Shown piece by piece: positions 14,397 to 52,090 of a stretch of DNA of 64,000 bases. The notes under the pieces were generated by a model. The model ran no database searches. It had not been told where the DNA came from and saw only the letters and a list, made by a program, of their open reading frames with translations. A program made the position numbers and the translations under genes. The stretch's first letter is position 1. The number at the start of each line of letters is the position of its first letter. This DNA is from Candidatus Scatovivens faecipullorum. GTDB lineage: Bacteria > Bacillota > Clostridia > TANB77 > CAG-508. Location of the stretch: contig DVLG01000035.1 in NCBI GenBank assembly GCA_018715625.1, forward strand, positions 24,080 to 88,079. Reading direction: 5' to 3'.

Positions 14397-14501
14397 ATTA
14401 AATCTATATATAATAAAAGTTTTTTACAATTTGTGATAATTTGTATTTATTTTATTACATTTAGTCTAAAAAGACAAGTATTAATAGCAAAATTGACAAA
14501 A

Positions 14502-14530
14502 AAAGATGAAGCCCCAAAAGCTTCATCTTT
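14502..14530. terminator. bidirectional rho-independent terminator downstream of giant gene B2
   Basis: An 11-bp stem AAAGATGAAGC / GCTTCATCTTT with a 7-nt loop. A/T runs flank it on both sides. Confidence 0.6.
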
Positions 14531-14678
14531 TTATTTATACTAAAGTTCTTTAAATTTACTATGTGTCTTTATATAGTCTATTTTATATTTTATAACTTTC
14601 ATATATTTTATCTTTATCTTTTTGTTTTCTATCTGTTTTTATATAAGTTATTTTTTAGACTACTCTATCACTCTAATT

Positions 14679-17600
14679 TTATTTAAGAACTTTTTTCTTA
14701 ATTACTACTATTCCTATTGCAATTACTGCAAGAGCAACAACTACAGCAGCAAGTATTTGTATTGTCATAACTGTTCCTGAATTGATACCTGTTGGAGGAG
14801 TAAATGTTACAAGTTCTGTTGCACTTGAATCTCTTTCTTTAAGAGCTACTTCAAATTCTCCAAGTGTTGGATTTGCATTACCTGGAACTGCAACTATATC
14901 TCTTCTACCAACTGAATTTTCTATTTTAACAATTTCTGCTATATTGTCATAATTTAAGTTATTTGCATCATCTTCTGCAGAAACTGTTTTTGTTATAGTT
15001 AAAACTATTTGAGATTTATAAGCATCTGCATTTTCTTTATATGGTACTAGTTTTGCTTCAAATCCTGAGTTATTCATTTGATCTGTATTTTCTTGTGTAT
15101 CAATACTTAATATTACATTATTTCTTTGGTCTGTGATATATGCAATACCTTTTTTATCAATTAATTCATATTCTGTTGTTATTACATCTGATAATAACTT
15201 ATCTGATCCATATCCACTACCAGTTAACTCTGTAACATTTGTATTTTTCCAGCTATGATCTTTTGCATTATTTAATTCTGCTGAGAATATACCATCATTA
15301 TCAACATAATCTACAATTTGACGAACTCTTGTTGTAACAACTTTATCAGCTCTTACATCATTTGTATAATAAGTTGTTCCTAAATATTCACCTGCTTTTG
15401 AAATTCCTTTGGCAGTATCTTCATAAGCTTTATTTGCAAGAAGTTTAAGAGCTTCTTTTTCTGTTCTAGGTTTAATTCCTGTAAGTTCCTCTACTTTTGT
15501 AAAGTTTTGTTCAGAAATATTTTCTAGTATTTCACTTGTTCTATCAACTTCACCAACATTTAATGCACTAACTTGATAATTAATTTCTATTGTTGTACCT
15601 TGTAATATTGTTTCATCAATATTTACATATCTGAAGTTTTGCATTCCAGAAATTTCCCTATCTGTTGGCTTTTCTTCACATTTATTAATTGCTTGCATTA
15701 CATCTGTTGCAACTGAAGAGTCAGATAATGAAACATCAGCAATTAAATATTTATTTCCTAGTTTAGTTATTATAGTCTTATCTGAAACACCTTCTAATAA
15801 ATCAGTTTCTCTATAATTAATATCATAGATTGCATTAAATATTATGTTTCCATCATTTGTAGTTAATTTAATTGAACTTATTTGTTTATCAAGAACTACT
15901 GCTGTTTCAGGTCTTTCAATTAATCCAAAATCTATGTTGTTAATTAAGTAATTTGTTCCTTCTTTTTGTACTCTAACACTTCCAGCTTCTAATACAGTTC
16001 CTAAAATTTCAGGTTTTTCTTCTACACCTTCGCCAAAGTTTTCTATAAATAAACTTATCTTTGCTGTATCTGCAAACATTGAATAATCATTATATAAATC
16101 AGTATGTTTTTCATCTAATTTATTTGCAGTTGCAAGTACTGTTCCATTTACATTTGTTATAGTTTCTGAATTTGATGTAATTTCAAGTCTTCTAGCTTCA
16201 CTATCTTTTGCATCTGAAACTCTTGCGTTTGCTAAATCAATATTATCTAAATCATGCCATTCATTGTTTACATAACCATTATCATCTACACTTGTAAATC
16301 CTGATTGATAAATTGTAGATCTATAATCTTGACCATTATAAATAGCTGCTGTTTTTCCTTCAAGATCTTTATCATAATTTGCTGTTAAAATATTGTCTTC
16401 ATCAAAACGTTCACCATTTGCTTTATATGCTTCTGGATCTCCAGAAATTTCAAATGTATCTTCTAAATCTAATTTATTGTTTCCATATAAAAATCTTACA
16501 ACATAATCTCCAACTGGAACTGATGTAAATTTATAAGAACCAACACTAGATTCATTTTCTACGTTTTCTCTTGAAGTTTCTGTTGTACTGTCAAAACCTG
16601 TTAGATATTCTAGTGTTTTTCCACCTAAAACATCTAATTGTTTACTTGTTGGCCACAAGAAATCATATTCTCTATCTCCAACTTTTATTTTTTCAACAAG
16701 TTCTGTAGTTAATCCTCCAATTAAAGCTTCATCACCCTCATCATAAAGTCCATTTCCTACTGCTGTATCTCCTTCTGGTTTATCTTCCCAAGCTAAACCA
16801 TTTATTTCTCTATTTTCTTCTACTATTGTTAATTCTAATACTGGTGCTGAATCAGTATCATCTTCATACCATGATTTTTCATTGTAGCTTCTGATGTTTA
16901 CGTTTGCTGGTGCTGAATCTCTATCTATTTTACCTGCGTTTCTACCATCAGTATAACTTGTTGAATAACTTGAAATTTCAGCTACATTTGACTTATCTCC
17001 AAGTCTAATTGTATCTTCAACTCCATCTATATTTTCTTTATCTAATGCAAATGTTACATAAATATCAGCTTTTTCTCCACTTCTTAAGCTTATATCTAAA
17101 TTTTGAGCTGTCATTTTATTATAAGTTACTCCATCAGAACCTTTGATTCCTCTTTCTGTAACATTCCATGTAACATTTTTATTTCCAGATGGTGATTCTA
17201 CATAAGAAGCGTTCGCTACTTCTGTTAATCCATTTTGTTCTGCTCCGTCTATTGTTTTTACATATTTTTCTACTTTTGTATCAATTGGATCTCCAAATGA
17301 ACTATCAAAGTAATCATCAACTGAATTTATTTTAGTAATATAATCTGGTCCTTCATTATATAAACTTATCTTATATGTTAAATAAACATCTAATTCTGTT
17401 GCATCAATACTTGTTCCTAAATCTTTATAGAATTTTTCTATTGCATCATATCCTGTTATATTAGAGTTTGCTTGATACATTTCTGCTCTGTAATAATAAT
17501 CTGTACTGTATAACCCTAATTGATATTCAATTTGAGTTGTGTCTGCATATAATTGTCTACTATAACAATCTGAACCAATATCTTCTAATTTATTAAATTT

Positions 17601-20600
17601 ATAATTTAACAACTTATCATTAACAACTACTTTAGCTGAAACTAAATCCTTAGTTGTTCCTAAATCAACTTCTGGTCTTCTCTTTAATCCTAAATTAATG
17701 TGTAATGTATAATTATAAGTTGCAGAATACATATAATATTGAACTAATCCAAGTTCATTTATATAAGTATCATAGCTTTCTAAATGAATTCTATTATCAA
17801 ATGGATAAGTTAATCCTCCAACTGATGTTCTTGCTTTAGCCTTAAATAAATCTTTTGCAGTTCCATCAGCATTTTGAGTTTGTACTTCTGAAGATATTCT
17901 TGAAGTTCCATTTGCTACTGCAGATTTTGCTCCTTCATAGAAAATGTCTTTTTCTCTTTCACTTTCCACAGCAGTACCTATTGTTTCACCTTCACCATTT
18001 ATTTCTGTTTTTCCTTTAATTTCTTGAATTCTATTATCAACTTCTTCTCTATCATAGTCTAAAGCCATAGAGTCTCTTGCCCAAGCATCTCTTCCTGAAG
18101 TTGAAGCACTTCTATAAGCATTGGCATCTCCATTTGAAGTTGCTAAGAATTTTGTTGGTTCATAAGTTTGACCATCATAAACAAATTCAATATCATAAGT
18201 TCCTGATTTTAATATTTTTACACTTGGAGCTTCCCAATGTCCACCATCTGTTGTAATTATTGGTTGACTAATTTCTTCTCCATCATCATAAATTGTTGCT
18301 AAATTTCCGTTATTATCATAAATATATACTTCAATTCCATCTAATCTTCTTTCATTGTCATCCATTATACCGTTTTCAACAGAATTTTCTGTATTTTTAT
18401 CATTTTCATCAAGTGGTGTATCTTCCCATACATCACCTGCAAGTTTAATTGTTAAATCTATAACTGTTAAAGTTTCTAATCTGTTTGAAACAACTATCTC
18501 TAAGTTATCAGAAATCTCTGCCCCATTATTTGATATGCTAACATTTTTCCAACCTTTTGGAATATTATTTTCAGTTACAGTTACTGTTGGAGCATTATCA
18601 CCCCACCATTTAATTGTTGGTGATGTATATGTTTCTCCACCTTTCAAGCTGATATTAATTACTCTTGTTGAATCAACAACACTTTGTCCATCCATTTCAA
18701 AAGTACCTGAAATTGTAACTGTCATATCAAAACTTGGAAGTTCTAATCCATCTAATAATTTTTCATCAGCAATTATTTCTTTTCTAACTGTAAAGCTTCC
18801 CTCATGCTCTTCATATTTGTTTGTTGCTACAACAGATATTGTTTGACCTTCTGGAGCCAATTTTCCTTCTGCATTATCTATTCTAACTACTTCTGTTCCT
18901 TCTGGAAGATTAATTTCTTCAACTTTATATGAAGGAGCTTCTTCTGTTACATACCATTTAAACATATCTGATTTATATGTTTGATTTGCTTTTATTGTTA
19001 CTATAAATGGCTCATATCCATCTACTGTAACTCTAAATGTAAATTCTTCATCACCAATAACACCATTTTCAACTAATTTTGTTATTTCTAAATATCCACC
19101 TGTTAATTTAGGTTCGTTTATAAATGTTGCTATTGTTGCTTCTGCTCCTGGTTTTATAGTTCCACTAGCATTTAAAACTGATATATTGTTTGCAATTTCT
19201 GATTCTAGCTCTTCTACTGTATAAGTTGGAGCTGAATTTCCATACCATTTAATTGTTCCGGAATCCCACTGACTACCGCCAGAAACTGTTATTTCTTGAG
19301 AAAATTCTTCTCCAGCAGCTTCTCCTGGTCCATATTTTGTTCCATTATATTCAAAAGCACCTCTTATAGTTACTTTGAATTTAAATTCTTGACCATTTAA
19401 ACTTTCATGAGTTACTTGTTTTTTAACGATTAAGTTTCCAGAATTTTCATTTGCTCTATTTACAAATTCATTATCTGTTGTAATTAATATTTCCCCAGTT
19501 TGGCTCTCTTTTAATTTTCCTTGTATACCATTTTCTATTTGTGTTCCGCCATCTGAAGTTGCTGATACAAATTCTGTTCCTTCTGGAAGGTCAATTTCTG
19601 TTATTGTATAGTTTGGAGCTTCCGCATCAGCTGCCCAAGTAAATGCATTTGATGTATATTCCCAAACATAAGAATCACCTTTTTTCTCTGCATTTAATGA
19701 AACCACATAAGGTTCATATCCATCTACTGTAATTTGGAATTTAAATACTAAAGAATTTATATATTCAGTAGACATTCCTTGTGCATTTTCTAGTGTTTTT
19801 ATAATATGAAGATATCCTGCTTTTGGAGTTATGTCTCTATTCCAAGCTGTTACTTTTACTGTGTTTGTACCTTCTGATACATCAGCTAAAGTACCTTTAG
19901 AAGGTTCAACTGATGAAGCAATATCTTCTGCAAGTAAATTCTCTTCTACTGTATATTCTGGAGCCATTTCTCCATTCCATGTAAATTCATCTGAAGTCCA
20001 TACAGTAGGGGCGTCTACACTACTTACTTTTATTACAACAAAACTATTTTCATCATAAATATCGTTTGTTATTTCTACTGCTGAATCATTTGTTAATTGA
20101 ATTTTGGTTCCTGGTCCATAAGTTTGACCTTTATATGTGAAACTTCCTTTAGAAGTTACTGTTACCACAAACTTAAATTCTTTATCAACTAATGTATCTG
20201 AATCTATATGTTTTGTTATTTCAATTCTACCTGAATGAGGTTTTTCTATTCTGTTTACAATGTTATTTGTAACTTCAAAATCTTTTGTTTCATCACTAAC
20301 TAAAGTTCCTGTAATTGTTTGTCCATTTACTGTTATTTGTACATCATCACTTGTTGCTGTAACAAAACTTGTTCCTTCTGGATTATCAACCTCTGTTATT
20401 GTATAATTTGGATTATTTCCAGCAAACCATTCATAATATCCAGATGTATATTCCCAAACATAAGAATTATCTTTTCTTATTGGTGAAATTTCAATTCTTT
20501 GTTTATCATATCCATCCACAGAAATTTCAAAATTAAATTTTAATTTCATTATTTCTTCTTCAGAATATAATTCTGCATTTTCTAATGTCTTTATAATATG

Positions 20601-22922
20601 AATTTTTGCTTTTTCTATTGTTTGCTCATTTATTGCTGTTACTGTTACTGTTTCATCATCAGATAATCTACCTGAACTTGGTGTTATAGAAATTAACTCA
20701 GCAAATTCTGAACTTAACTCTTCAACTTTATATTTAGGAGCTGTTTCTCCATACCATTTAACATTTCCTAAATTCCATTCTCCTCTTCCATTATTAATTG
20801 TAATAGAAGCATCTATGGTAGTTGAAGCATCATTATATTTTTGTCCATTATATTTAAATGTTCCACTTAAAGTTACTTTAAAGTTAAAAGTTTTACCCTC
20901 TAAATTACTTTCTTTTCCATTTAAAATATTTTTATCTATTTTCTTTACGATTTTTAAGTTACCAGTATGCTCTCCAATATTAGTAGCTTTTACCTTTACT
21001 GTTCTTCCATCTCTTAATTCTCCTGAAGCATTTTCAAGGTCTAATTGTTTAAAACCATCTTTGTCAATTTCTTCAACAGTATAAGTTGGATTTCCATTTT
21101 CAACATTCCAATAATATGTTTTAGTAGTTGCTGAACGTCCAGCTTTAACTCTTATTATATCTGAGCCCCCATTTATAGCACCATCTACATTAACTCTGAA
21201 ATAGAAGAATTTGTTTACGTCTTTTACTTCTTCTCCATCTTCATCAACTACTTCTTTTTCTATTCTAATTTTTCCACTTCTAATATCTAATCTTCTATCT
21301 AAATGAGTTGTATTATACCATCTTGCTGCTTTTAATCCACCAGCTAATTGTTGAGAAGTCTTTTCAACTATATCTTTATCCGAATATTCTACCCAATAAT
21401 CAGTTGATTCAACATGTGGTTTATATTGTCCATGTTCACAAGGTGTTCCTCCACTACAGCTATGATGAGATATATTTTCTCCACTACCAGTAGTCCAACT
21501 ATGTGCACCTGTTCTTCCATGTGAACAAGTATGACCATCTGTACACCAATTTTGTTTTTCTTTTGCAGTCCAAGTTACCTCATTATAAGTTCCTCTTAAA
21601 TCTTCATATTGTCCTCCAGCATTCATATACCTAAAGTCAAATGATAGATTTGTTATCTTAGTTAAATTTTCTTTATCTTTTAATGCTATATAAAATACTT
21701 CATTTTCGTGTGGAAACTCATATGTATCATCTAGTTCTCTTTCTCCATCTAGCCATACAAAACTCCAATCAACATTTCTTACTAATGCTTCTTCTGAAGC
21801 ATCAGTATACAATTTTGCATCTGTTATACCTGCAAATTGTACTGCATTTCTACCTTCAACTTGTGCTCCGGCTTCAACATAGTTAATAGAAAAAGGTCCA
21901 ACTTTATATTCACCTAATTCACTATCCCATGTTACTGTTGGAGTATTTAAATCATAATTGTTTGAATTATTAATAGCTTTATATGAATCATTGTCATTAA
22001 AACTAACTTTATATTCTAATTCTGGAGCTTTTACTGTTCCTTTAACACCATTTACTTCAAATTCAGTATCAACAAAATCTGCTGTATTCATAGATTTAGC
22101 TATTCTTGAAATATACGTTTCAAAAGCCCTTGCCTCCTCTGTCAATCCATTTGCTGGAACTGGGTTACTTCCAGCTGCTAAGTTATCTGTATTCCACCAA
22201 GCTCTTTGAACATAAGAATATACGCCCCATCCTTGATCAGTGCTTTCTTCAACATAATAATATTTTCCATCCGTATCTTGTACAACAAGTGTTTCTTTTC
22301 CAACTCCACCTTCAATTACGTAAACTGTCAAATCTCCTGCCGTAGTTGCAGTTGCATTAGCTAATGCTTCTGTGTCGGTAAATTCTATCTTATTACCATG
22401 TTCATCACCTAAGAATTTCAATCCACCATTTTCAAAATTTGGAAGATTATTAATCATTTCAGATAATATATAAGCTTCCATTGGAGTAGCAATTCTTACA
22501 TCATTTACAACATATTTTCCATAAGTCTTATTCATATAAGTACCTTGTTTGAATGGTGTTTCTGTATTTTCTCCTTCAAGGTTTACTTCGAATAATTTTC
22601 CTCCACCGTCTCCTTTTTCAATAGTTCCGGTATAGCTTGGGTCAGAGCTTCCCATTTCTGTTACTAATGTAGCTCCTCCATCTCCTGTTAATGGAGTTCC
22701 ATGAGAAGAACAAAATATTTCATATCTTTGAACTAAATCATTATAAGTTAAATAATCTTCAGCGCCAATTTGACCGTTTGCCATACCTGGTCCTTCTGAT
22801 TCCATCTCATCTGTAATTTCTTGTGCATAAGTTTTATAAATTATAAAGGTGCTTAACAATAATAGTATAATTGCTAAAGCTAATATTAAAATTTTATTAG
22901 AATTTTTTATGATTTTTTTCAT
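14679..22922 (-). CDS. giant surface protein B2 (2747 aa): signal peptide, putative thioester (TED-like) head, Cys/His-rich insert, eight CnaB/SpaA-like domains, SdrD-B-like domains, TPPTG sorting signal plus TM plus KKK tail
   Basis: A single uninterrupted ORF. ATG 22922 (MKKIIKNSNKILILALAIILLLL...AQE) lies 4 nt after the B1 stop, with the GGAGGTG RBS inside the last B1 codons. The GTG at 22934 in the ORF track is part of that RBS. See the findings for motifs. Confidence 0.9.
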   Translation of the reverse strand: MKKIIKNSNKILILALAIILLLLSTFIIYKTYAQEITDEMESEGPGMANGQIGAEDYLTYNDLVQRYEIFCSSHGTPLTGDGGATLVTEMGSSDPSYTGTIEKGDGGGKLFEVNLEGENTETPFKQGTYMNKTYGKYVVNDVRIATPMEAYILSEMINNLPNFENGGLKFLGDEHGNKIEFTDTEALANATATTAGDLTVYVIEGGVGKETLVVQDTDGKYYYVEESTDQGWGVYSYVQRAWWNTDNLAAGSNPVPANGLTEEARAFETYISRIAKSMNTADFVDTEFEVNGVKGTVKAPELEYKVSFNDNDSYKAINNSNNYDLNTPTVTWDSELGEYKVGPFSINYVEAGAQVEGRNAVQFAGITDAKLYTDASEEALVRNVDWSFVWLDGERELDDTYEFPHENEVFYIALKDKENLTKITNLSFDFRYMNAGGQYEDLRGTYNEVTWTAKEKQNWCTDGHTCSHGRTGAHSWTTGSGENISHHSCSGGTPCEHGQYKPHVESTDYWVEYSDKDIVEKTSQQLAGGLKAARWYNTTHLDRRLDIRSGKIRIEKEVVDEDGEEVKDVNKFFYFRVNVDGAINGGSDIIRVKAGRSATTKTYYWNVENGNPTYTVEEIDKDGFKQLDLENASGELRDGRTVKVKATNIGEHTGNLKIVKKIDKNILNGKESNLEGKTFNFKVTLSGTFKYNGQKYNDASTTIDASITINNGRGEWNLGNVKWYGETAPKYKVEELSSEFAELISITPSSGRLSDDETVTVTAINEQTIEKAKIHIIKTLENAELYSEEEIMKLKFNFEISVDGYDKQRIEISPIRKDNSYVWEYTSGYYEWFAGNNPNYTITEVDNPEGTSFVTATSDDVQITVNGQTITGTLVSDETKDFEVTNNIVNRIEKPHSGRIEITKHIDSDTLVDKEFKFVVTVTSKGSFTYKGQTYGPGTKIQLTNDSAVEITNDIYDENSFVVIKVSSVDAPTVWTSDEFTWNGEMAPEYTVEENLLAEDIASSVEPSKGTLADVSEGTNTVKVTAWNRDITPKAGYLHIIKTLENAQGMSTEYINSLVFKFQITVDGYEPYVVSLNAEKKGDSYVWEYTSNAFTWAADAEAPNYTITEIDLPEGTEFVSATSDGGTQIENGIQGKLKESQTGEILITTDNEFVNRANENSGNLIVKKQVTHESLNGQEFKFKVTIRGAFEYNGTKYGPGEAAGEEFSQEITVSGGSQWDSGTIKWYGNSAPTYTVEELESEIANNISVLNASGTIKPGAEATIATFINEPKLTGGYLEITKLVENGVIGDEEFTFRVTVDGYEPFIVTIKANQTYKSDMFKWYVTEEAPSYKVEEINLPEGTEVVRIDNAEGKLAPEGQTISVVATNKYEEHEGSFTVRKEIIADEKLLDGLELPSFDMTVTISGTFEMDGQSVVDSTRVINISLKGGETYTSPTIKWWGDNAPTVTVTENNIPKGWKNVSISNNGAEISDNLEIVVSNRLETLTVIDLTIKLAGDVWEDTPLDENDKNTENSVENGIMDDNERRLDGIEVYIYDNNGNLATIYDDGEEISQPIITTDGGHWEAPSVKILKSGTYDIEFVYDGQTYEPTKFLATSNGDANAYRSASTSGRDAWARDSMALDYDREEVDNRIQEIKGKTEINGEGETIGTAVESEREKDIFYEGAKSAVANGTSRISSEVQTQNADGTAKDLFKAKARTSVGGLTYPFDNRIHLESYDTYINELGLVQYYMYSATYNYTLHINLGLKRRPEVDLGTTKDLVSAKVVVNDKLLNYKFNKLEDIGSDCYSRQLYADTTQIEYQLGLYSTDYYYRAEMYQANSNITGYDAIEKFYKDLGTSIDATELDVYLTYKISLYNEGPDYITKINSVDDYFDSSFGDPIDTKVEKYVKTIDGAEQNGLTEVANASYVESPSGNKNVTWNVTERGIKGSDGVTYNKMTAQNLDISLRSGEKADIYVTFALDKENIDGVEDTIRLGDKSNVAEISSYSTSYTDGRNAGKIDRDSAPANVNIRSYNEKSWYEDDTDSAPVLELTIVEENREINGLAWEDKPEGDTAVGNGLYDEGDEALIGGLTTELVEKIKVGDREYDFLWPTSKQLDVLGGKTLEYLTGFDSTTETSRENVENESSVGSYKFTSVPVGDYVVRFLYGNNKLDLEDTFEISGDPEAYKANGERFDEDNILTANYDKDLEGKTAAIYNGQDYRSTIYQSGFTSVDDNGYVNNEWHDLDNIDLANARVSDAKDSEARRLEITSNSETITNVNGTVLATANKLDEKHTDLYNDYSMFADTAKISLFIENFGEGVEEKPEILGTVLEAGSVRVQKEGTNYLINNIDFGLIERPETAVVLDKQISSIKLTTNDGNIIFNAIYDINYRETDLLEGVSDKTIITKLGNKYLIADVSLSDSSVATDVMQAINKCEEKPTDREISGMQNFRYVNIDETILQGTTIEINYQVSALNVGEVDRTSEILENISEQNFTKVEELTGIKPRTEKEALKLLANKAYEDTAKGISKAGEYLGTTYYTNDVRADKVVTTRVRQIVDYVDNDGIFSAELNNAKDHSWKNTNVTELTGSGYGSDKLLSDVITTEYELIDKKGIAYITDQRNNVILSIDTQENTDQMNNSGFEAKLVPYKENADAYKSQIVLTITKTVSAEDDANNLNYDNIAEIVKIENSVGRRDIVAVPGNANPTLGEFEVALKERDSSATELVTFTPPTGINSGTVMTIQILAAVVVALAVIAIGIVVIKKKVLK

Positions 22923-22926
22923 ATCA

Positions 22927-28329: not shown

Positions 28330-28394
28330 AATCTTAATTCCTCCTACAACAACAATTTGGCATAGTATCAACTTTACTATAATTATATAAGTAT

Positions 28395-28422
28395 ATTCTA
28401 CTCTTTTTTTAAAAGTAGTCAA
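28395..28422 (-). promoter_or_regulatory. sigma-A promoter candidate for cassette B (B1-B2)
   Basis: On the minus strand: TTGACT (complement of 28417-28422), a 16-nt spacer, then TAGAAT (complement of 28395-28400). It lies about 60 nt upstream of the B1 ATG. The spacer block AAAAAGAGTA is shared with the cassette A promoter. Confidence 0.45.
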
Positions 28423-28911
28423 TAGAAAAAACCTTTGTAACACAAGGATTTCATGTTTTTATTTTCATTATCATTTACGGATTAACTATTTTAGCAAACT
28501 CCCGCTATGAAATATAAAATTTTCATTACATAAATCCTTTTATATAAGCCTTTTCCACCAGAAACTATACGTTATCTATTATATACCATTATGTAAACTT
28601 TTTCAAGGCTTTTTACATTATTTTTTGACTTTTTTTCAAAAAAAATTTAATTTAGTATTCCCTGTTTTAAATACTTTTCTGTCTTTTTTTGTCGAATAGT
28701 ATATTTTAATTTCAATTTTACTTGTCTATAATAATTTAAAAAGGAATTTTATATTGTTTTTAATAATTTCATTTTAAATTTACCGTCCTATTTTTTATAG
28801 AAATTTTATATTCTCACTTTTTAATATTACAATTTTATTTACAAATCTTTAAAAAATTACAAAGAGTATATTTGCGTAGCCAAAATAAATTTATTCAAAA
28901 AAATATTGTAT

Positions 28912-28943
28912 AAAAAGAAGAGAGTAAAAACTACTCTCTTCTT
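28912..28943 (-). terminator. rho-independent terminator after giant gene A2
   Basis: A 12-bp stem AAGAAGAGAGTA / TACTCTCTTCTT with a 5-nt loop, followed on the minus strand by a T-run. It starts 11 nt after the A2 stop. Confidence 0.6.
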
Positions 28944-28953
28944 AATTTATGTT

Positions 28954-37257: not shown

Positions 37258-37269
37258 AATATCACCTCC

Positions 37270-40200
37270 TTACTTATAAACTTTCTTAACATTAATTTTT
37301 TTCTTAATTTTTTCTTTATATTTGCCTTTAAATGTATCTTTATTTATAATATTAGTTTTAAACATAATTAAAATTATTAATATAATAGCTATTATAAATA
37401 TAATAATTGTTGTTGCTCCACCTGTTGAAACTAATATTAATGTATTCTGAACACTATTATTATTTTCGGCATTTTCTGAAACATTATCAGAACTATATGC
37501 TTCCAATATTGCGACTTTATTAGAATGTGTACCAGTATTATTTCCATCCATTGTTTTGGTTAAAACAAGTTTAATTTCTTTTTTATCTCCTGGTTTTAAT
37601 AAAGTTTGATTTATATTTTTAACATAAATATATCCATCTGTTCCTTTAAACCATTCTGAATTTTGACTTTCATCAAATTGTAAGTCACTATTTAGATAAT
37701 CTATTACATTTTCAGCATATCCTTCTAAATCTCCTATATTTTCAATAGAAACTGTATATTCTAAAGTAACTTTTGCACCATTTATTCTTCTAGATGGTAT
37801 TTCTACTTTTGCTAACTCTAAATTATCGAAATTATATTCTTCAGAAAATTTTCCATTTTCTACCTTAACTTTTGAAATATATTTATTTACAACTAAATCA
37901 AATATTTCTCTATTTTGAAGTCCTATATTAATATTTCCAACATTTTGATTTGCAACATTTATTTCATTTGTTACAGCAGAAATATCTTCTGAATCATTTT
38001 CCATAATATATGAATTATTTTCTGCTGATGAACTATCTTTTTTATAAATTGTTGCTTTATATTTTGTTTCGTCATAAGAAACTGCTATTACATAATTTCC
38101 ATTTTCTACTTCATTAAATTGATATGTTCCATCAACCGCTGTAATTGTAGACTTAATCATTGTTCCATTTGTATTCAATAAGTAAACTTTTACACCAGCC
38201 ATTTTTGTTTCATCATCAGTTTTTATACCATCTTTATTTGTATCCAACCAAGAAACACCACTAATTGAATATTTTGGAGTTATAGCATTTGGAGTATTTT
38301 GTAAATTATCTGTAGTATTACTATTATTATTTGTATTATTTGTGTTATTAGAATTATTATCTCCTGGTGTTACTATATCTTGATTACTTCCTGGAATGCT
38401 ATCTTGTGAATTTCCATTTGAATCATTATTTGTATTATCATTAGAAGAATTATTAAAATTATTATTTGAATTATTTTCTTGATTTGCTTGATTATTTTGG
38501 TCTTGTTCAATTAAATCATTAACTCTATCTTCTTCTATTTCTTCATCAGTTTTTAAATTATTATTTATGGTAAATTCTACTGGTTCTAAAACAACATCCT
38601 CCTGATCTGTATTTTTAATTTTTCTTATTATTATTGCTTCTGAAGAATCTGTTCCAGATAAATTCTTTGCTTTTAAAGTAATATCTATCGTTATACTTTC
38701 TTTTGCATGTATTAAAGGTAATGTCGCACTATAAATATTTCCTTCACTAGCATTTGCTAATAATTCACCATTTGAAACTCTAACACTTGAAACTATAACA
38801 CTCTCTGGTATTTCAAATTCTAATATACCTTCAGAACATTCTACTGTTGATATGTTTGTTATTAATGTAGAAATTGTAGCTGTTTCATTTTCATTAATGC
38901 TTTCAGGCAAATTTATTGTCATATCTGTAGCCTCTAGTACTGCTTTAGAAACAGTTTGAGGAACAACTGTACTTATTTCTTTTGCAACTTCATCAGCATA
39001 AAATTCAAAATAACAATCTACTGTTTTAGAAGCACTATCTATTTGTTTTGACATTACACAAGTAGTTAATGTAACAACTTGATTTGCTGCCATATCTCCT
39101 ATATAGTAATATATTTTTCCTTCCTCTTCTATGTATTCTATATTTTCACTTTTTTCGTCTATTGTTCCACTTACATATTCATATATATCACCAACATTTA
39201 AAGTTGCCACAACATTTTTCATATCTTTTCTTGATGTGTTGGTTAATAATAATGTAAAATTTGTTGCAACTCCTGCTTGTATTTCTCTATCATAATCTAA
39301 TCTAATTTCAGAAGCAAAATTTGCTTGATTTAACTTATTTTTTACTTCATTTGTTTCAATTGGATTAGCCATTAAAGCACTTGTTATAGTAGCTTTATTA
39401 GTAATATAAATATCTGGTACTTCTGTGATATATTCCTTGATTGGTACACTTTCTATAACAGTAATTGTTTCTTTTATTCCATCATTTTCTACTTCCTTTT
39501 GAACTTCTTTATCTTCATATCCTGTTATAATATAATATCCATTATCATCTTTATAAGCATATTCTTCTAATGTTGGCTTATTATATGTTCTAACATAATA
39601 TGTAGCTTCTTTAGTTTCTCCAGGATTAATTGTACCTAGATTAAACTTTATACCATCACTATAATCTCCTGAAGCTACCATATATCCATAATCACCTACT
39701 GCAGATCTTGGATCTTTAGTTAAATAATTAGTATATTGTGGTACAATACAATTTGCTATTACATCATTTGCTGCAACACTACCACTATTTGTAACAGAAA
39801 CTGTATATTTTAATCTCTTAAATGATAATACTTCTGTTCCATCTCCAACATCTACACTTAGTTTAGCTTCCATCTTTGGTCCAGCTTCTGTTGTTAAACC
39901 AACAATATCTGCACTTGAACTTTCATAAACAACTGCAACATCTGTGTTGTTGTTATAGTAAGCTCCAAAGCTTCCTGCTATACTTGTTTCATAAGGTAAA
40001 TTTGCTGGAATTTCAAAATCATAAGTATATCTTAAAACTTCACCAGCTTTTAATTTTCCATTTACAACAATTAAATAAGATTTTATTGTTGATGGATCTG
40101 TAACTTCTGTTGTCCAACCATTTGCTTCATTGTTTAAATCTTTAGTTGCATCTGGGTTAGTAGAATAATAAATTGTTGACATATTTGAGTTTTGTATATC

Positions 40201-43170
40201 TTCTTTTATTAAATCTCTAACTATTGTATCTGTTGTTGTTCCTAAATCTTCATTTGATATTACATCTTTATTTCCTTTAAAAGGAACTCTTCCTATTAAC
40301 ACTAAATCTGAACATTCATTTTCTGTATTGTTTAATGCTAATAATTCCATTGTAGCAACTCTTGCTGGACCGTTTATTGCAATTTGTTTTGTTACTTTTC
40401 CTTGTTTTACTGATCTTATTTCACTTAAATTTCCATCATAATTTACAATACCATTTATTGCAATTAATCCTTTTGGTGCTTGGTATTTAATTAATGCAAC
40501 ATCAAAACCATTTGTTGTTTTTAATATTCCATTTGGTATTTGTTTATTTATTGTCCATTTTGTTTGTGATTGATAATTTGATACACCTTCATTGTAATAA
40601 TATAATTTGATTTGGTCTTCTTTTGATGGAGTATAATCATCTACTTCTATATTCACATTTACAACTATATTTGTTCCATTTGTAATTGAACTTTCACTAA
40701 ATGTTTTTTGTGTTCCTACAAGTTCAATTCTCATTTTTACAATATCACTTTCTGTATAAGTATTAAAATCACTTACTTGTAAGCCATTTTCATATAATAA
40801 ATTTATACTTTGTACTGATACTGCTTTTACATATTTAGGAAATACTAATTCAAATGTAGGATTTACATATAAATCACTATTTTCCTTATCATTATTTAAT
40901 TCTATTTTTAATTCTACATTATTGTTATCTTGTATTGTTGTTAATGTTTCTTTATTTATTGATAATGTAGCTGATGTAGAACTTTCTTCAAATTCTTTTC
41001 TTGTTCCAATAGCTCCAAGTGCTAAAGTTTCTTCAATTGCTTGATATTTAACTTCAGCTGTTATTCTACTTTCAATTTGTGTTATATCTTTAAATGTTGA
41101 TTTTTCATAATTACAATTTTTAATTGCTTTTGTTAATTCAAAACTTATATTTCCATTTTTTGCAATATTTCTTGCATAAACTAAAATTCCATTTGCTCCA
41201 TTTAAATTAATTGTACAATCCTCTTCTTTTGTTACTAATGAAGAATTTAATGTATATAAAAGCTCTCCATTTGCATTTGTTATTACTATTTCTCCACCTG
41301 CTGATAAAATTGATGAAATTTCAGAATAATTAAATTTAATTTGTTTATATTCTATTCCTTGTGCTTGTAACTCAAGATTATTTGAAGTAATATAATATTC
41401 TTTTGTACTATCTATTTTTAATTCCTCTAATATATCACTTGTTAGTATATTAACATTTACTTGTGTTGTATATTCTGTTTCATATACTGGTGTTTCTGAA
41501 TTATAATTTGCATATATTTTTGCTTTATTAATTTTATCTTCTGTTGAACTAATATTATATGTAATTAATTCTCCAACATCTATTTTTATACTTTGTCTAT
41601 CATTTATTTCTTTTGTAAGAATATTGTTTTCATTTGAACTATATTCTTCAACACTTGCTTTTACTACTTTATCTAAGTTTGAATTTTCTTCACTTATATA
41701 ATCTTCATATCTATATATAACAACGTATTCGTCAATTCCATTTGTATTTAAAGCTTCAGTATTCTCTACTACTGTAAAAATTTTTCCTGATTCTTTGTCA
41801 TAGTTCCAATTAGCTTGTGTAAAGTTTGTATATCCAGTATCCTCTCCTCTTGTTGCCATTAACTTATTTGCAACTACATCTACTTCAATAGGAGCTTTTC
41901 CATTTACTTTTGGAACTGTTATTTCTAATTTTGTTGATTTTATTGGTAAATATTTAGTATCTGTAATTTCTCTTTTTACAGATATTTTGTTTTCAACAAT
42001 AGTTCCTTTTATATCTCCTATTTCAAATGGAGAAAATTTTGTATATTCACTTGTTAATTCTATATCTTTAGAATATTCCCATCCTAAAGTTACTTCTTCT
42101 TCTTTTCCGATTTGTACTTCTTCTAAGTCGCTATTTATATATGTTCCACTTATTTGTAATTTTATATTTTTATATAAATCTGAAACTTTTAAAGTTTCTC
42201 CTTGAACATATTCTAAATCTGCAATAATTTTTGTATCTTCTATTATATTTGTAAGTTTAATTTTATCGTCTGCAATTAAACTTATATCTAAAGCTGCATT
42301 TGCAATTTCTTGTTGAAGTTTATCTGCTGCTTCTGTTTTCTCTATAATTACTTCTTCTTCATTTACTAATTGATCTTCTTCAGACACAACAGAATCAGAA
42401 GCTACATTATTAGCCTCTTGGTTAACAGTATTATTTTCTTCTATCGCAATTTCATTTGCTACTGTTTCATTAACTACTTCTGATATTTCTGTTTCATTTA
42501 CTACATTATTATTTGAAGTATCATTTGAAGAATTTGTAATCTCATTTGTTACTGCATTAGTTGTTTCATTATTTGCATTATTAGCCTCATTTGTAACTTC
42601 ATTTGCTACTTCATTTTTTACAACTTCTGTTACTGTATTTTCAGAATTTTCATTTTGCTGTACATTCTCACTAACATTTGTATTTTCATTTACTACAGTA
42701 TTTGTCTCTTCTTTACTTTCTTCTACTGCAGGGTCTTGTGACTCTTCTTTTGCAGCCTCTTCTTCAATTTTACTTCCTACATCATCTAAATTAGAATTAG
42801 AATTTGCTTCTAAGCCTTCTATAACATTTTGGCTAACATTAGATATTCTAAAATTAATGTTATCATCAGCAGCACTTACTGCCTTGATTGTAGCATTTTT
42901 TAAATATCCTTCAACCTGTGGCAACACTTCTAAAACTAATTTAACCTTTTGGTTTACATTTCCAGTAAATTCATCCATTTGATTACCGTTTTCATCTTCA
43001 AAATAGGCATTAAACTTAATTTCATCTTTTTTGAAGAATCCATTGTTTATAACCTGGAATTCATCACTTGTTGCAATAGCTTCAATAGTGTATCCACAGT
43101 TTGAAAACAACATCATAAAAACAATTAGAATTACTAGAAACTTGCTTTTTTTAGTTCTTACTGTTTCCAT
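37270..43170 (-). CDS. giant surface protein A1 (1967 aa): signal peptide, Asn/Glu/Val-rich spacer, DUF11-like repeats, Asn-rich spacer, SdrD-B-like domain, LVSTG plus TM plus Lys-rich tail
   Basis: ATG 43170 (METVRTKKSKFLVILIVFMMLFSNCGYTIEAIA) has GGAG upstream. The earlier codons in the ORF track cover the leader. It is a paralogue of B1 (F.AYF...GYLK.A.I; (V/L)GR(V/I)PFKG.KD....EDLGTT.DT; GVSWLDTNKDGIKTDDE). Confidence 0.9.
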   Translation of the reverse strand: METVRTKKSKFLVILIVFMMLFSNCGYTIEAIATSDEFQVINNGFFKKDEIKFNAYFEDENGNQMDEFTGNVNQKVKLVLEVLPQVEGYLKNATIKAVSAADDNINFRISNVSQNVIEGLEANSNSNLDDVGSKIEEEAAKEESQDPAVEESKEETNTVVNENTNVSENVQQNENSENTVTEVVKNEVANEVTNEANNANNETTNAVTNEITNSSNDTSNNNVVNETEISEVVNETVANEIAIEENNTVNQEANNVASDSVVSEEDQLVNEEEVIIEKTEAADKLQQEIANAALDISLIADDKIKLTNIIEDTKIIADLEYVQGETLKVSDLYKNIKLQISGTYINSDLEEVQIGKEEEVTLGWEYSKDIELTSEYTKFSPFEIGDIKGTIVENKISVKREITDTKYLPIKSTKLEITVPKVNGKAPIEVDVVANKLMATRGEDTGYTNFTQANWNYDKESGKIFTVVENTEALNTNGIDEYVVIYRYEDYISEENSNLDKVVKASVEEYSSNENNILTKEINDRQSIKIDVGELITYNISSTEDKINKAKIYANYNSETPVYETEYTTQVNVNILTSDILEELKIDSTKEYYITSNNLELQAQGIEYKQIKFNYSEISSILSAGGEIVITNANGELLYTLNSSLVTKEEDCTINLNGANGILVYARNIAKNGNISFELTKAIKNCNYEKSTFKDITQIESRITAEVKYQAIEETLALGAIGTRKEFEESSTSATLSINKETLTTIQDNNNVELKIELNNDKENSDLYVNPTFELVFPKYVKAVSVQSINLLYENGLQVSDFNTYTESDIVKMRIELVGTQKTFSESSITNGTNIVVNVNIEVDDYTPSKEDQIKLYYYNEGVSNYQSQTKWTINKQIPNGILKTTNGFDVALIKYQAPKGLIAINGIVNYDGNLSEIRSVKQGKVTKQIAINGPARVATMELLALNNTENECSDLVLIGRVPFKGNKDVISNEDLGTTTDTIVRDLIKEDIQNSNMSTIYYSTNPDATKDLNNEANGWTTEVTDPSTIKSYLIVVNGKLKAGEVLRYTYDFEIPANLPYETSIAGSFGAYYNNNTDVAVVYESSSADIVGLTTEAGPKMEAKLSVDVGDGTEVLSFKRLKYTVSVTNSGSVAANDVIANCIVPQYTNYLTKDPRSAVGDYGYMVASGDYSDGIKFNLGTINPGETKEATYYVRTYNKPTLEEYAYKDDNGYYIITGYEDKEVQKEVENDGIKETITVIESVPIKEYITEVPDIYITNKATITSALMANPIETNEVKNKLNQANFASEIRLDYDREIQAGVATNFTLLLTNTSRKDMKNVVATLNVGDIYEYVSGTIDEKSENIEYIEEEGKIYYYIGDMAANQVVTLTTCVMSKQIDSASKTVDCYFEFYADEVAKEISTVVPQTVSKAVLEATDMTINLPESINENETATISTLITNISTVECSEGILEFEIPESVIVSSVRVSNGELLANASEGNIYSATLPLIHAKESITIDITLKAKNLSGTDSSEAIIIRKIKNTDQEDVVLEPVEFTINNNLKTDEEIEEDRVNDLIEQDQNNQANQENNSNNNFNNSSNDNTNNDSNGNSQDSIPGSNQDIVTPGDNNSNNTNNTNNNSNTTDNLQNTPNAITPKYSISGVSWLDTNKDGIKTDDETKMAGVKVYLLNTNGTMIKSTITAVDGTYQFNEVENGNYVIAVSYDETKYKATIYKKDSSSAENNSYIMENDSEDISAVTNEINVANQNVGNINIGLQNREIFDLVVNKYISKVKVENGKFSEEYNFDNLELAKVEIPSRRINGAKVTLEYTVSIENIGDLEGYAENVIDYLNSDLQFDESQNSEWFKGTDGYIYVKNINQTLLKPGDKKEIKLVLTKTMDGNNTGTHSNKVAILEAYSSDNVSENAENNNSVQNTLILVSTGGATTIIIFIIAIILIILIMFKTNIINKDTFKGKYKEKIKKKINVKKVYK

Positions 43171-43231
43171 ACAAAACTCCTTTTCTTTAGAATCTGGACG
43201 CAATACGTCTACTTTTTTATTTATATATAAA

Positions 43232-43260
43232 ATATTACTCTTTTTCAAAAACTTTGTAAA
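43232..43260 (-). promoter_or_regulatory. sigma-A promoter candidate for cassette A (A1-A2)
   Basis: On the minus strand: TTTACA (complement of 43255-43260), a 17-nt spacer, then TAATAT (complement of 43232-43237). It lies about 55 nt upstream of the A1 ATG. Confidence 0.45.
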
Positions 43261-43375
43261 CTCCAGTATTTTCCAATATTACAAAGCTTTAATTTTTCTT
43301 TTTACGGAATATCTAACTTCATGGCTTAAGAGTCTTATATTAAGTTTTAATTACATTTTTGTTTTTTTTACCTTG

Positions 43376-43477: not shown

Positions 43478-43618
43478 TTGAATAACATGGATATTAATAA
43501 ACTTCTTGCTGCCATTTCAAAAATGGATAAAGAAGAACTTGAAAAAAATATTTATAAAGCTAAGCAAATATTAGAAAATTCTAATATACAAAAAGATATG
43601 AATAAGGATGATAAATAA
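43478..43618 (+). CDS. possible 46-aa helical protein (TTG start; alternative ATG at 43487)
   Basis: Not in the ORF track because it is too short. AAGGGGG (43464-43470) lies 7 nt upstream of the TTG. Translation is MNNMDINKLLAAISKMDKEELEKNIYKAKQILENSNIQKDMNKDDK. It overlaps the start of the next ORF. Confidence 0.35.
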   Translation: MNNMDINKLLAAISKMDKEELEKNIYKAKQILENSNIQKDMNKDDK

Positions 43619-52014: not shown

Positions 52015-52090
52015 GCGCCATTAGCTCAGTTGGTAGAGCAGTTGACTCTTAATCAAATGGTCGGAGGTTCGAATCCTCTATGGCGCACCA
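52015..52090 (+). tRNA. tRNA-Lys (anticodon CUU), CCA encoded
   Basis: The cloverleaf was read by eye. The acceptor stem is GCGCCAT/ATGGCGC and the D arm is GCTC-AGTTGGTA-GAGC. The anticodon loop is CT-CTT-AA and the T arm is GGAGG-TTCGAAT-CCTCT. The discriminator A and CCA follow. Confidence 0.9.

Follow-up and report, generated by a model that had tools for sequence, protein, structure and literature searches.

Four consecutive giant genes on the minus strand (A1, A2, B1 and B2) account for 28.5 kb of a MAG of Candidatus Scatovivens faecipullorum (GTDB TANB77/CAG-508; organism and clade assignment supported by PMC13106387). Together they fill 44.6% of the window, i.e. the whole 64,000-nucleotide stretch of DNA that was analysed, and the exact sequences of all four are present in public collections. 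The existence of the four ORFs, the lengths of A2, B1 and B2 and the ~45% share agree with the preliminary description, while A1 was determined to be 1966 aa and not 1967: its mechanical ORF extends to a TTG at 43248, and the GenBank entry HIT70888.1 is also 1966 aa long. The coordinates, by ORF and translation, are as follows.

37270–43170, minus strand: A1, type-1 giant protein, HIT70888.1, 1966 aa from ATG (exact sequence in NCBI)
28954–37257, minus strand: A2, type-2 giant protein, HIT70887.1, 2767 aa
22927–28329, minus strand: B1, type-1 giant protein, HIT70886.1, annotated 'DUF11 domain-containing protein', 1800 aa
14679–22922, minus strand: B2, type-2 giant protein, HIT70885.1, 2747 aa

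As described earlier, the base composition of the block is like that of the rest of the window (G+C 0.26–0.32) and no mobility genes were found beside it. On one side, small ORFs in divergent orientation lie between the giant genes and minC; directly downstream of the block lies SpoIIE, with YpeB, a second sporulation gene of the window, nearby.

The junctions within and between the two cassettes, A1-A2 and B1-B2, carry the following elements.

37258–37272, minus strand: A1 stop / RBS / A2 start junction (TAAGGAGGTG, then ATG), with 12 nt containing GGAGGTG between the A1 stop and the A2 ATG
22923–22940, minus strand: B1 stop / B2 start junction, 4 nt from stop to ATG, with GGAGGTG within the last B1 codons
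28915–28943, minus strand: terminator-like hairpin after A2, a 12-bp stem followed by a T run on the minus strand
14500–14532, minus strand: terminator-like palindromic hairpin after B2
43232–43260, minus strand: cassette A promoter-like site, TTTACA-17-TAATAT
28395–28422, minus strand: cassette B proximal promoter-like site, TTGACT-16-TAGAAT, conserved in the orthologue alignment
28578–28606, minus strand: cassette B second promoter-like site, TTGAAA-17-TATAAT, conserved in the orthologue alignment
43301–43356, minus strand: cassette A upstream cis-element, ATGTAATTAAAACTTAATAT (43337–43356) plus TCCGTAAA (43301–43308), common to both cassettes
28474–28531, minus strand: cassette B upstream cis-element, ATGTAATGAAAATTTTATAT (28512–28531) plus TCCGTAAA (28474–28481), common to both cassettes

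The layout of both junctions supports the translational coupling that had been proposed within each cassette. In nine orthologous loci TAAGGAGGTG or a near match to it (TAGAGAGGGGG in L005) precedes the ATG by a short spacer, and the same tight B1/B2 junction is found in L003. A promoter scan of the sequence returned sites no more numerous than in shuffled sequence, and hence the promoter calls depend on conservation across orthologues; for cassette A, nine of these retain both the TTTACA/TGTACA and the AGAGTAATAT box. With a terminator after each cassette and conserved promoter-like boxes before each, the two appear to be transcribed as separate units, as had been claimed. The cis-element upstream of both lies at a similar distance from the conserved promoter-like site in each case. 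Its TCCGTAAA part has just two copies in the window, one ahead of each cassette, and the composite pattern is also present in L007, L008 and L010.

The position of SpoIIE and YpeB would fit giant proteins that are made during sporulation as spore-surface appendages. However, the promoter-like boxes that are conserved belong to the housekeeping TTGACA/TATAAT class, the combination of an N-terminal signal peptide and a C-terminal sorting-type anchor is that of a vegetative wall protein, and the giant proteins resemble no known protein of spore appendages or of the exosporium. We consider a spore-surface origin the most improbable of the explanations discussed here.

Formal alignment is significant for both the A1/B1 and the A2/B2 pair and supports two paralogous two-gene cassettes. 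A1 and B1 align over their full length in a single BLASTP HSP (1851 columns, 28% identity, 721 bits without composition adjustment; with adjustment, the score is limited to the last 326 aa, 5e-48). A motif scan places F.AYF, GYLK.A.I, GR[VI]PFKG and EDLGTT.DT at collinear positions in both, and the proposed paralogy of these two proteins thus holds throughout. That of A2 and B2 is seen directly in the C-terminal ~1300–1550 aa, where A2 1190–2756 is collinear with B2 1460–2745 (23% identity, BLASTP 1.6e-61), whereas the heads are related through the family profile only: compared pairwise they have no significant similarity (E 0.05–0.9), but a single head profile recovers both, and a 21-sequence alignment reveals common invariant Cys, Gln, Trp and Gly-Pro columns. 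The motifs put forward as common to A2 and B2 hold in part, with TPPTG present in both while YKVGPF..NYV is exact in B2 alone; the A2 version, YKVGPFKMSNYV, is one residue longer.

The organisation of the type-1 proteins can be illustrated with A1.

43063–43170, minus strand: signal peptide, residues 1–36, with a basic n-region, hydrophobic core and AIA/TS site, read from the sequence
39841–42303, minus strand: conserved N-terminal/central region, residues 290–1110, no known domain, 25–48% identical to B1 in 120-aa windows
38551–39840, minus strand: CLIPPER/DUF11-like Ig stalk region, residues 1111–1540, with a weak Pfam DUF11 match at 1119–1199
37957–38265, minus strand: SdrD B-like domain, residues 1636–1738 (Pfam PF17210, 2.2e-13)
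37273–37458, minus strand: C-terminal LVSTGG motif, TM helix and basic tail, read from the sequence, a layout also found in relatives P0086 and P0088

A lipobox is unlikely, given that the Cys of LFSNCG is not conserved in orthologues. The type-1 order is an orphan N-terminal region of ~1100 aa, a CLIPPER/DUF11 Ig-like part, one SdrD-B domain, one more Ig-like domain, an xxxTG motif, a TM helix and a basic tail. The N-terminal ~1100 aa have no match in Pfam or PDB; residues 290–1110 contain many invariant columns in an 11-sequence alignment. DUF11 matches 9 of the 11 family members (best E 3.9e-23), and the SdrD B-like domain matches SdrD in the PDB (10ps_A, 3.8e-12; family profile 6e-25). DUF11 now goes by the name CLIPPER: it is a CnaA-like domain of characterised structure that builds the stalks of fibrillar adhesins, and an intramolecular isopeptide bond forms in many of its copies (PMC12617251).

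In the type-2 proteins, an invariant-Cys/Gln/Trp head is followed by a variable Cys/His-rich cluster, a long Ig-like stalk of the intramolecular-isopeptide type, (T/S/I)PPTG, a TM helix and a basic tail.

35908–37152, minus strand: A2 orphan head, residues 36–450 (AF2 model pLDDT 71, pTM 0.68)
36973–36993, minus strand: A2 YFCAQHG motif with the family-invariant Cys91 (column C56 of the head alignment)
36547–36567, minus strand: A2 PLQHALW motif with invariant Gln233 and Trp237 (columns Q198 and W202), in a predicted helix
35623–35892, minus strand: A2 Cys/His-rich cluster, residues 456–545, with up to 12 Cys and up to 8 His per 100-aa window
21573–22817, minus strand: B2 head, residues 36–450, with IFCSSHG (22698–22718) and VQRAWW (22194–22211), from sequence and head profile
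21423–21557, minus strand: B2 short Cys/His cluster, residues 456–500, with 4 Cys and 7 His (8 His in the densest 100-aa window)

The head profile found 37 proteins among 1.84 billion representatives, including a B2-like subgroup (P0116, P0119, P0122 and P0125), and the family displays strain-level length polymorphism. Nearly all type-2 relatives have the Cys/His-rich cluster at this position, and A2 residues 401–600, which include it, are the fastest-evolving 200-codon window (dN 0.20, omega 0.49).

The preliminary description had proposed that a scaffold or stalk protein is combined with a covalent 'harpoon' adhesin; on this reading the type-2 head would be a thioester domain (TED), or a new class of it, with a Cys-Gln thioester reacting with a host amine to give covalent attachment. 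TED motifs include [YFL]CΦζ and TQxxΦW (PMC4450167, PMC6194298), and the type-2 heads bear two of the three motifs, [YF]C-hydrophobic-polar and QxxΦW. Across 21 diverged heads invariance is restricted to Cys, Gln, Trp and Gly-Pro; the [FY]C-(A/I/V/S)-(Q/E/S) around the Cys fits the first motif, and A2 PLQHALW has the same form as TQxxΦW (PMC6194298). The xQxxΦW lies on the second of three predicted helices (196–204 in the A2 AF2 model), with beta structure before and after, in the order seen in TEDs (PMC4450167, PMC6194298). Furthermore, a signal, head, isopeptide-type stalk and xPxTG anchor make up the layout of TIE proteins.

No homology to TEDs could be detected, however. Pfam TED models matched none of the 21 heads (E up to 10), and a PDB search with the head profile returned no TED chain (E up to 10). 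The A2 head model gave no fold match in PDB or BFVD; in Foldseek against the PDB, this pLDDT-71 model reached a best E of 0.05 and TM ≤0.13, with no TED among the 50 matches listed; the surroundings of the Cys are modelled with low confidence (pLDDT <50). The hhalign probability was 0.5% against the TIEpLS20 TED and 0.15% against a 9-sequence class II TED alignment. In TEDs the bonded Gln is universally conserved and distinct from the QxxΦW Gln, whereas the type-2 heads have no second invariant Gln: one in a TYQ(K/R)IH beta-strand is nearly invariant in A2-like heads, but the position is Arg or Lys in B2-like and P0117-like heads. The harpoon claim hence finds no homology support, and we regard thioester chemistry as unlikely, albeit the least unlikely of the alternatives to the model proposed below.

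A signal peptide, Ig-like stalk domains, an xxxTG motif, a TM helix and a basic tail are present in all four proteins, and the stalks match Pfam SdrD_B and DUF11 and the B domains of SdrD/UafA in the PDB.

18477–21290, minus strand: B2 array of eight CnaB-like Ig repeats of ~100–135 aa, residues 545–1482, with conserved Lys, Glu and Asn (iterated HMM and alignment)
28957–29124, minus strand: A2 TPPTG motif, ~20-aa polar spacer, TM helix and KKRRYK tail, read from the sequence
14682–14807, minus strand: B2 TPPTG motif, TM helix and KKKVLK tail, read from the sequence

Between strains, B2 varies by 121 aa, approximately one repeat. Of 19 full-length type-2 relatives, 17 retain (T/S/I)PPTG. In A2-type proteins a polar spacer of ~20 aa separates PPTG from the TM helix, which is unusual in a sorting signal. 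The wall targeting claimed for the four proteins remains plausible from their C-terminal motifs, hydrophobic helices and basic tails, although neither the window nor the ten orthologous loci contain a sortase gene. Most of the ~9300 residues have no Pfam match. No ligand-binding domain is recognisable in the four proteins, so that the label 'adhesin' derives from architecture only.

These anchors, together with pilin/adhesin isopeptide-type domains and paired coupled genes suggestive of fixed stoichiometry, might also be expected of pilin-like subunits joined by sortase via xxxTG into a heteromeric fibre. Pilus operons, however, encode their own class C sortase, while no sortase gene is found in or adjoining any of the 10 orthologous loci, and at 1800–2800 aa the proteins are far above the size of pilins. 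A sortase-built pilus is therefore highly improbable, if slightly less so than a spore appendage.

At least seven diverged gut MAGs share the order PBP-MinC-small ORF-A1-A2-B1(-B2) (within the fetched DNA: L003/L004, L007, L008, L009, L010, L012 and GCA_016648615.1, with B2 within the data in L003/L004 and GCA_016648615.1 only), and the A1-A2 pair also adjoins MinC in L002, L005 and L011. The long residence proposed for the block is strongly supported by this shared order beside mreD-pbp-minC in diverged species, and the A1-A2 adjacency is borne out across orthologous loci. Orthologue identities to the window are 66–98% for MinC, 40–94% for A1, 33–92% for A2 and 44–87% for B1. The four giant genes are real and under purifying selection. 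For A1, A2 and B1, dN/dS is 0.20–0.23 (compared to 0.027–0.037 for MinC and PBP). Along the genes dS ranges from 0.008 to 0.42, variation typical of recombining surface-protein genes.

Linkage to mreC-mreD-pbp-minC in all genomes examined, retention of the four genes across species at 33–65% identity, the large investment in 28.5 kb of coding sequence, and membrane or wall anchors on both partners are in keeping with structural parts of the envelope (coat, sheath or cell-cohesion fibres) with a role tied to envelope growth, instead of adhesins. Against this, searches of the four proteins revealed neither an S-layer domain (SLH, CWB2) nor any other coat domain, the giant genes have their own promoter-like sites and stand apart from minC behind the divergent small ORFs, and the one search pattern used recovered the family from few species (7 of 185,579 GTDB representatives). 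The giant genes are also mosaic, with dN/dS six to eight times that of their neighbours, a pattern more in keeping with exposed, diversifying proteins than with a coat of core structural function. A structural role is thus quite unlikely, somewhat more so than a thioester head.

We consider it rather likely that the locus comprises two ancient paralogous bicistronic operons, vertically inherited in one uncultured gut Clostridia clade (TANB77/CAG-508), that encode Sec-exported, C-terminally anchored, fibre-like surface proteins. Surface display and adhesion by the four proteins are suggested by their sequence features, and conserved adjacency and coupling would make the type-1 and type-2 proteins physically interacting partners. 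In the proposed mechanism, the stop/RBS/start overlap would couple translation, so that the two partners would be produced together in a fixed ratio. The stalks would keep the N-terminal regions at a distance from the wall, and these regions may recognise a ligand, be it on host mucus or epithelium, on food particles or on other microbes. Both cassettes may be co-regulated: as one upstream cis-element is common to both, a single regulator probably controls them. We propose that both were retained because the heads diverged toward different targets.

The literature searched contains no named system with the type-1/type-2 pairing, in line with the preliminary description. The locus probably encodes fibrillar surface proteins, as a duplicated pair specific to this clade, that belong with the bacterial fibrillar adhesins as opposed to a new kind of system, with N-terminal tips unlike any known domain. 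A precedent for adjacent giant surface-protein genes is provided by the small-genome symbiont Apilactobacillus kunkeei, which has five consecutive such genes including a co-diverging pair (PMC12863079).

Four consecutive giant genes occupy positions 14679-43170 on the minus strand of the window. The DNA derives from Candidatus Scatovivens faecipullorum, a MAG recovered from chicken gut. This organism is placed in the GTDB order TANB77, family CAG-508, a species-rich family of gut Clostridia with almost no cultured members (PMC13106387). As judged from sequence, the best-supported reading of the locus is that of a fibrillar surface-protein pair, duplicated and restricted to one clade, with a type-1 protein (A1 or B1) and a type-2 protein (A2 or B2) encoded in each of two cassettes, A (A1-A2) and B (B1-B2). 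Identical public sequences exist for all four proteins; B1 is named 'DUF11 domain-containing protein' and the other three 'hypothetical protein'. The genes and associated elements are as follows.

37270-43170, minus strand: A1, 1966 aa counted from the ATG
28954-37257, minus strand: A2, 2767 aa
22927-28329, minus strand: B1, 1800 aa
14679-22922, minus strand: B2, 2747 aa
28915-28943: terminator-like hairpin after A2
14500-14532: terminator-like hairpin after B2
43301-43356, minus strand: two-part cis-element upstream of cassette A
28474-28531, minus strand: two-part cis-element upstream of cassette B

Upstream of the giant genes lie radC-mreC-mreD-pbp-minC and two small divergent ORFs, and downstream lies spoIIE. 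For a locus with these neighbours, a coat of the cell envelope linked to the cell-shape operon and a spore appendage are alternative readings, each facing specific counter-evidence; the fibrillar surface pair is the reading best supported by the features described below. The small ORFs (46 aa, 43478-43618; 130 aa, 43608-44000) are located on the plus strand between minC and A1 and are directed away from A1. The 130-aa ORF has a hydrophobic C-terminus and no Pfam match, and is kept at the same place in the relatives' loci L005 and L007-L012 (43-96% identity). Firmicutes minC is usually followed by minD and minE; here the 3' side of minC (43997-44602) is occupied by the small ORFs and giant genes instead, as it is in every orthologous locus. 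Elsewhere in the window, a tRNA gene at 52015-52087 (+) is the sole Rfam match, and an Rfam scan of the intergenic regions found no RNA family. A single ORF at 10260-11810 (+), among the few plus-strand window ORFs of ≥100 aa with a Pfam family match, is a fusion of an MGDG-synthase-type glycosyltransferase with a NUDIX domain at its C-terminus.

The preliminary description held the two genes of each cassette to be translationally coupled, and the junctions confirm this in sequence. In cassette A the ribosome-binding site of A2 overlaps the stop codon of A1 (TAAGGAGGTG, followed by a short spacer and the ATG), while the B2 ATG lies 4 nt from the B1 stop, with GGAGGTG inside B1. The A1/A2 form of the junction is kept in nine orthologous loci, and this conserved coupling argues that the type-1 and type-2 proteins are needed together. 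Conserved housekeeping-type promoter boxes are found upstream of both A1 and B1. A further ~40-50 nt upstream, with similar spacing in both cassettes, lies the two-part cis-element, in which ATGTAATNAAAAYTTWATAT is followed ~30 nt later by TCCGTAAA. Exact matches to the 20-mer of this element occur at two window sites only (chance expectation 0.27 at two mismatches), and TCCGTAAA is present only twice in the 64 kb, once upstream of each cassette. The element is also kept in orthologues from other species and is probably the binding site of a regulator. We infer that the cassettes form two transcription units under a common regulator. With its conserved stop/RBS/start coupling and common upstream element, the locus is a clear example of a duplicated surface module of two genes, complete with regulatory region.

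Paralogy of the cassettes is clearest for the type-1 proteins. A1 and B1 align end-to-end in a single HSP of 1851 columns (28% identity, 721 bits; BLASTP without composition adjustment), with 25-48% identity per 120-aa window, bearing out their proposed common origin. The similarity looked weaker at first pass because composition-adjusted BLASTP detects a match in the last 326 aa only. For the type-2 proteins the same proposal stands in part: A2 and B2 are collinear from residues 1190 and 1460, respectively, through the C-terminus (1.6e-61), but the first ~450 residues show no significant pairwise similarity. This region includes the head, an orphan N-terminal region (residues 36-450) ahead of the stalk of Ig-like domains, and the two heads are linked through a profile. 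A search of 1.84 billion representative proteins with the head profile recovered 37 proteins, ~20 of them giants of 2400-3900 aa, with both A2-like and B2-like groups represented. Sequence motifs listed in the preliminary description are present, although YKVGPF..NYV is exact in B2 only. The retention of both cassettes together with the strong divergence of their heads argues for two specificities.

The order (mreC-)mreD-pbp-minC-small ORF-A1-A2-B1(-B2) recurs in L003/L004, L007, L008, L009, L010, L012 and GCA_016648615.1, read as far as the fetched DNA extends, with B2 inside it in L003/L004 and GCA_016648615.1 only. An A1-A2 pair beside minC is also found in L002, L005 and L011. All these loci come from uncultured Clostridia MAGs (human, Hadza, deer and other guts). 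Identity to the window ranges over 66-98% for MinC, 62-98% for PBP, 40-94% for A1, 33-92% for A2 and 44-87% for B1. Given the common gene order across species, the duplication is older than their split and both copies have been retained. The locus is present in at least 7 species, a lower bound since the search used a single peptide pattern. Recent acquisition was rejected on base composition (G+C 23-32% across the whole window) and synteny in diverged species, and the long residence proposed from sequence is strongly supported.

Against the closest relative, L007, dN/dS is 0.23 (A1), 0.20 (A2) and 0.22 (B1) for the giant genes compared to 0.037 for PBP and 0.027 for MinC. In the same comparison, dS ranges from 0.008 to 0.42 along the giant genes. 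This wide swing suggests within-gene recombination mosaics between strains. In A1 and A2 (28954-43170), synonymous divergence from L007 jumps between ~0.01 and 0.4 in neighbouring 200-codon blocks. Length also varies: public B2 variants (P0047-P0060) are mostly 2626 aa compared to 2747 aa here, a difference of 121 aa or about one CnaB-like repeat, and A1 variants span 1966 to 2006 aa. A more distant case is seen in L001 (8157-18709; GCA_009741595.1, contig VOFC01001312.1), where a frameshifted B1/A1-like gene is followed by a type-2-like gene that has neither head nor N-terminal repeats. This adjacency of a type-1 gene and a headless type-2 gene indicates that the pair behaves as a unit elsewhere too. 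The L001 pair adjoins two integrases and a primase/D5-type gene set, so mobile elements may now and then carry the type-1/type-2 pair.

All four proteins begin with a signal sequence (basic plus hydrophobic), and at the C-terminus of each an xxxTG motif precedes a hydrophobic helix and a basic tail, the motif being LVSTG in A1, SAKTG in B1 and TPPTG in A2 and B2. A lipoprotein reading of A1 (LFSNCG) was rejected, as the Cys is not conserved in orthologues. The form (T/S/I)PPTG is found in 17 of 19 full-length type-2 relatives, and the A2 group has an unusual polar spacer of ~20 aa ahead of the hydrophobic helix. The type-2 anchor is similar to the (S/P)PXTG signals found in substrates of sortase B in Clostridioides difficile. 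SdrD-B-like domains are present in all four proteins. Four stretches of B1 pass the Pfam threshold for DUF11, with sub-threshold matches in A1 and A2; this family, now named CLIPPER, provides fibrillar adhesins with CnaA-like stalk domains, and one copy of known structure has an intramolecular isopeptide bond (PMC12617251). B2 545-1482 contains eight repeats of ~100-135 aa with an invariant Lys, and with Glu and Asn in 7/8, which would correspond to the residue triad of CnaB-type isopeptide domains. Tandem Repeats Finder found no DNA-level repeats in this array; the repeats are old and can be seen only at protein level. We propose that the proteins would be exported by Sec, anchored at the C-terminus and extended on stalks of cross-link-type Ig domains, with N-terminal regions that would bind ligands and lie outside every known family.

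A sortase-built heteromeric fibre is a further alternative reading, again with specific counter-evidence. Sortase pilus operons carry their own sortase gene; in contrast, a scan of window ORFs of ≥100 aa found neither a sortase nor mobility genes. Furthermore, the orthologous-locus ORFs of ≥120 aa, among those listed, all match window genes of the locus.

The type-1 N-terminal ~1100 aa is the best-conserved part between A1 and B1 and has no Pfam or PDB match, even with an 11-sequence profile. Between the type-2 head and stalk lies a Cys/His-rich cluster, which in A2 (456-545; 35623-35892) reaches 12 Cys and 8 His per 100-aa window and in relatives 15 Cys and 16 His; EHTHGxGCN units recur within it. 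Its size varies between species (P0079, P0101, P0106 and P0117), with repeated units such as EHTHGTGCNTxSC. The cluster has no match to a known family; its position is conserved and falls in the fastest-evolving window of A2 (dN 0.20). A metal site would be our guess.

The type-2 protein had been cast as a covalent 'harpoon' adhesin, which would make its head a thioester domain (TED). TEDs are defined by three motifs, namely [YFL]CΦζ, TQxxΦW on a helix and, further along, a ΦQζΦΦ strand that holds the bonded Gln; both the Cys and the bonded Gln are universally conserved (PMC4450167, PMC6194298). Across 21 aligned heads, invariance is confined to a single Cys, a single Gln, a single Trp and a Gly-Pro. 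The Cys is located in a [YFL]CΦζ motif (YFCAQ in A2, IFCSS in B2), and the Gln and Trp in a helical QxxΦW motif (LQHALW in A2, VQRAWW in B2) with a hydrophobic residue in place of the Thr. An AF2 model from the 21 sequences (pLDDT 71, pTM 0.68), used instead of one of A2 1-450 on a 5-sequence alignment (pLDDT 37), places QxxΦW on a predicted helix (196-204), the second of three between beta regions; the model is unreliable around the Cys. In the 21-sequence alignment the helical-motif Gln is the only invariant Gln, and none is left as an invariant bond partner. The Gln of TYQ(K/R)IH is nearly invariant in A2-like heads only; B2-like and P0117-like heads have Arg or Lys instead.

Five homology tests of TED membership were negative. 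None of the 21 heads matched the Pfam TED models at E up to 10, and the head profile found no TED in the PDB. Foldseek of the head model against the PDB gave neither a TED-like nor any other fold match (best E 0.05, TM ≤0.13 among the matches listed; model weak near the Cys). Comparison by hhalign returned probabilities of 0.5% against the pLS20 TED and 0.15% against a 9-sequence class II TED alignment of plasmid homologues. A word-indexed homologue search yielded very few matches, one for the pLS20 TED; relatives were supplied by the exhaustive profile search. A true thioester harpoon finds no support in any of these homology tests, no second Gln is invariant, and what survives of the proposal is a resemblance at motif level. 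Weak Foldseek matches to factor XIII transglutaminase (probability ~0.1, TM 0.12), a possible hint of a Cys-enzyme fold, were discarded since the head family has no invariant His or Asp. In a search for phage receptor-binding relatives, the BFVD folds gave no match.

As the homology tests failed, no second Gln is invariant and the model is weak near the Cys, we treat a reactive-Cys head as a lead rather than a finding, and as an unlikely one. A fuller scheme is less probable still. The head would represent a reactive-cysteine domain class unrelated in sequence to TEDs, in which the Cys and the Gln/Trp helix form or support a covalent ligand bond and a Cys/His metal site tunes the reaction; the type-1 partner would co-assemble with it into a two-protein fibre used only by this CAG-508 clade to attach to host or microbe, the cassettes providing two specificities under one regulator.

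The new parts of this locus are two orphan N-terminal families, an extracellular Cys/His cluster and a two-gene unit that is conserved, duplicated and equipped with a regulatory element of its own. Both orphan regions are large, and one combines an invariant Cys/Gln/Trp signature with the unusual extracellular cluster. The locus is conserved and under selection, and its four products are the likeliest candidates for the points at which the clade touches host or neighbours, so that studies of expression, binding and structure have a definite object here. A literature search found no paper linking CAG-508/TANB77 to such giant surface proteins, and the locus gives a tangible way into the surface biology of a gut lineage that is uncultured.

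Among known systems, the architecture predicted from sequence (signal, isopeptide/ester Ig stalk, LPXTG-type anchor) is that of the thioester, isopeptide, ester domain (TIE) adhesins of Gram-positive bacteria, and the proteins would function in the manner of these and of CLIPPER-type fibrillar adhesins. The type-2 proteins share with CpTIE of Clostridium perfringens, BaTIE and TIEpLS20 a signal peptide, an N-terminal head, a cross-link-type Ig stalk, xPxTG, a hydrophobic helix and a basic tail, as well as the [YF]CΦζ and helical QxxΦW motifs. In contrast to TIE proteins, the type-2 head has no sequence, profile or fold similarity to class I/II TEDs, lacks the invariant bond-partner Gln, is ~2x TED size and is backed by the Cys/His-rich cluster. 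Moreover, the proteins are 3-5 times longer than a typical TIE, and a coupled type-1 gene always precedes the type-2 gene. The four proteins also display the length, tandem known stalk families, secretion signal and anchor of fibrillar adhesins (PMC12617251). CLIPPER/DUF11 adhesins of this kind are likewise long, with a tandem CnaA-like Ig stalk between N-terminal functional region and anchor (PMC12617251), but CLIPPER domains make up a small share of each protein here and the N-terminal regions match none of the CLIPPER-associated adhesive domains. Neither the type-2 head nor the N-terminal 1100 aa of type 1 has a match in Pfam, NCBIfam, PDB or fold searches, and no adhesive domain is recognisable.

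Staphylococcal Sdr proteins share the SdrD-B-like domain and its VW.D...DG calcium-site-like motif, with one or two such domains in each protein here, and this B-like domain is the sole part matching SdrD and UafA. It is a minor stalk element here, the N2N3 ligand-binding A region is absent, and a tandem-repeat scan with sequence reading found no Ser-Asp repeat array in the giant proteins. Cellulosome-type scaffoldin pairs offer no parallel, with no cohesin or dockerin Pfam match in the four proteins. The giant adhesin of Mobiluncus mulieris (PMC10619420) is similarly a Gram-positive surface protein with many cross-linked Ig-like domains; however, it is one protein of 7651 aa with 51 near-uniform repeats, whereas the domains here are heterogeneous and distributed over two partner types.

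The closest organisational analogue, although not homologous, is Apilactobacillus kunkeei Giant1-5, where several consecutive genes for extracellular proteins of 3000-8000 aa account for much of a small gut-associated symbiont genome, the adjacent Giant4-5 pair co-diverges and recombination drives diversification (PMC12863079). The Giant heads are beta-solenoids of a Lactobacillaceae lineage, homology with the proteins here being neither detected nor expected, and the study does not describe a duplicated two-gene unit with translational coupling (PMC12863079). The locus described here is not surprising in kind, and its giant pairs extend a known theme rather than opening a new one. Giant Ig-repeat surface proteins are commonly carried by gut Firmicutes.
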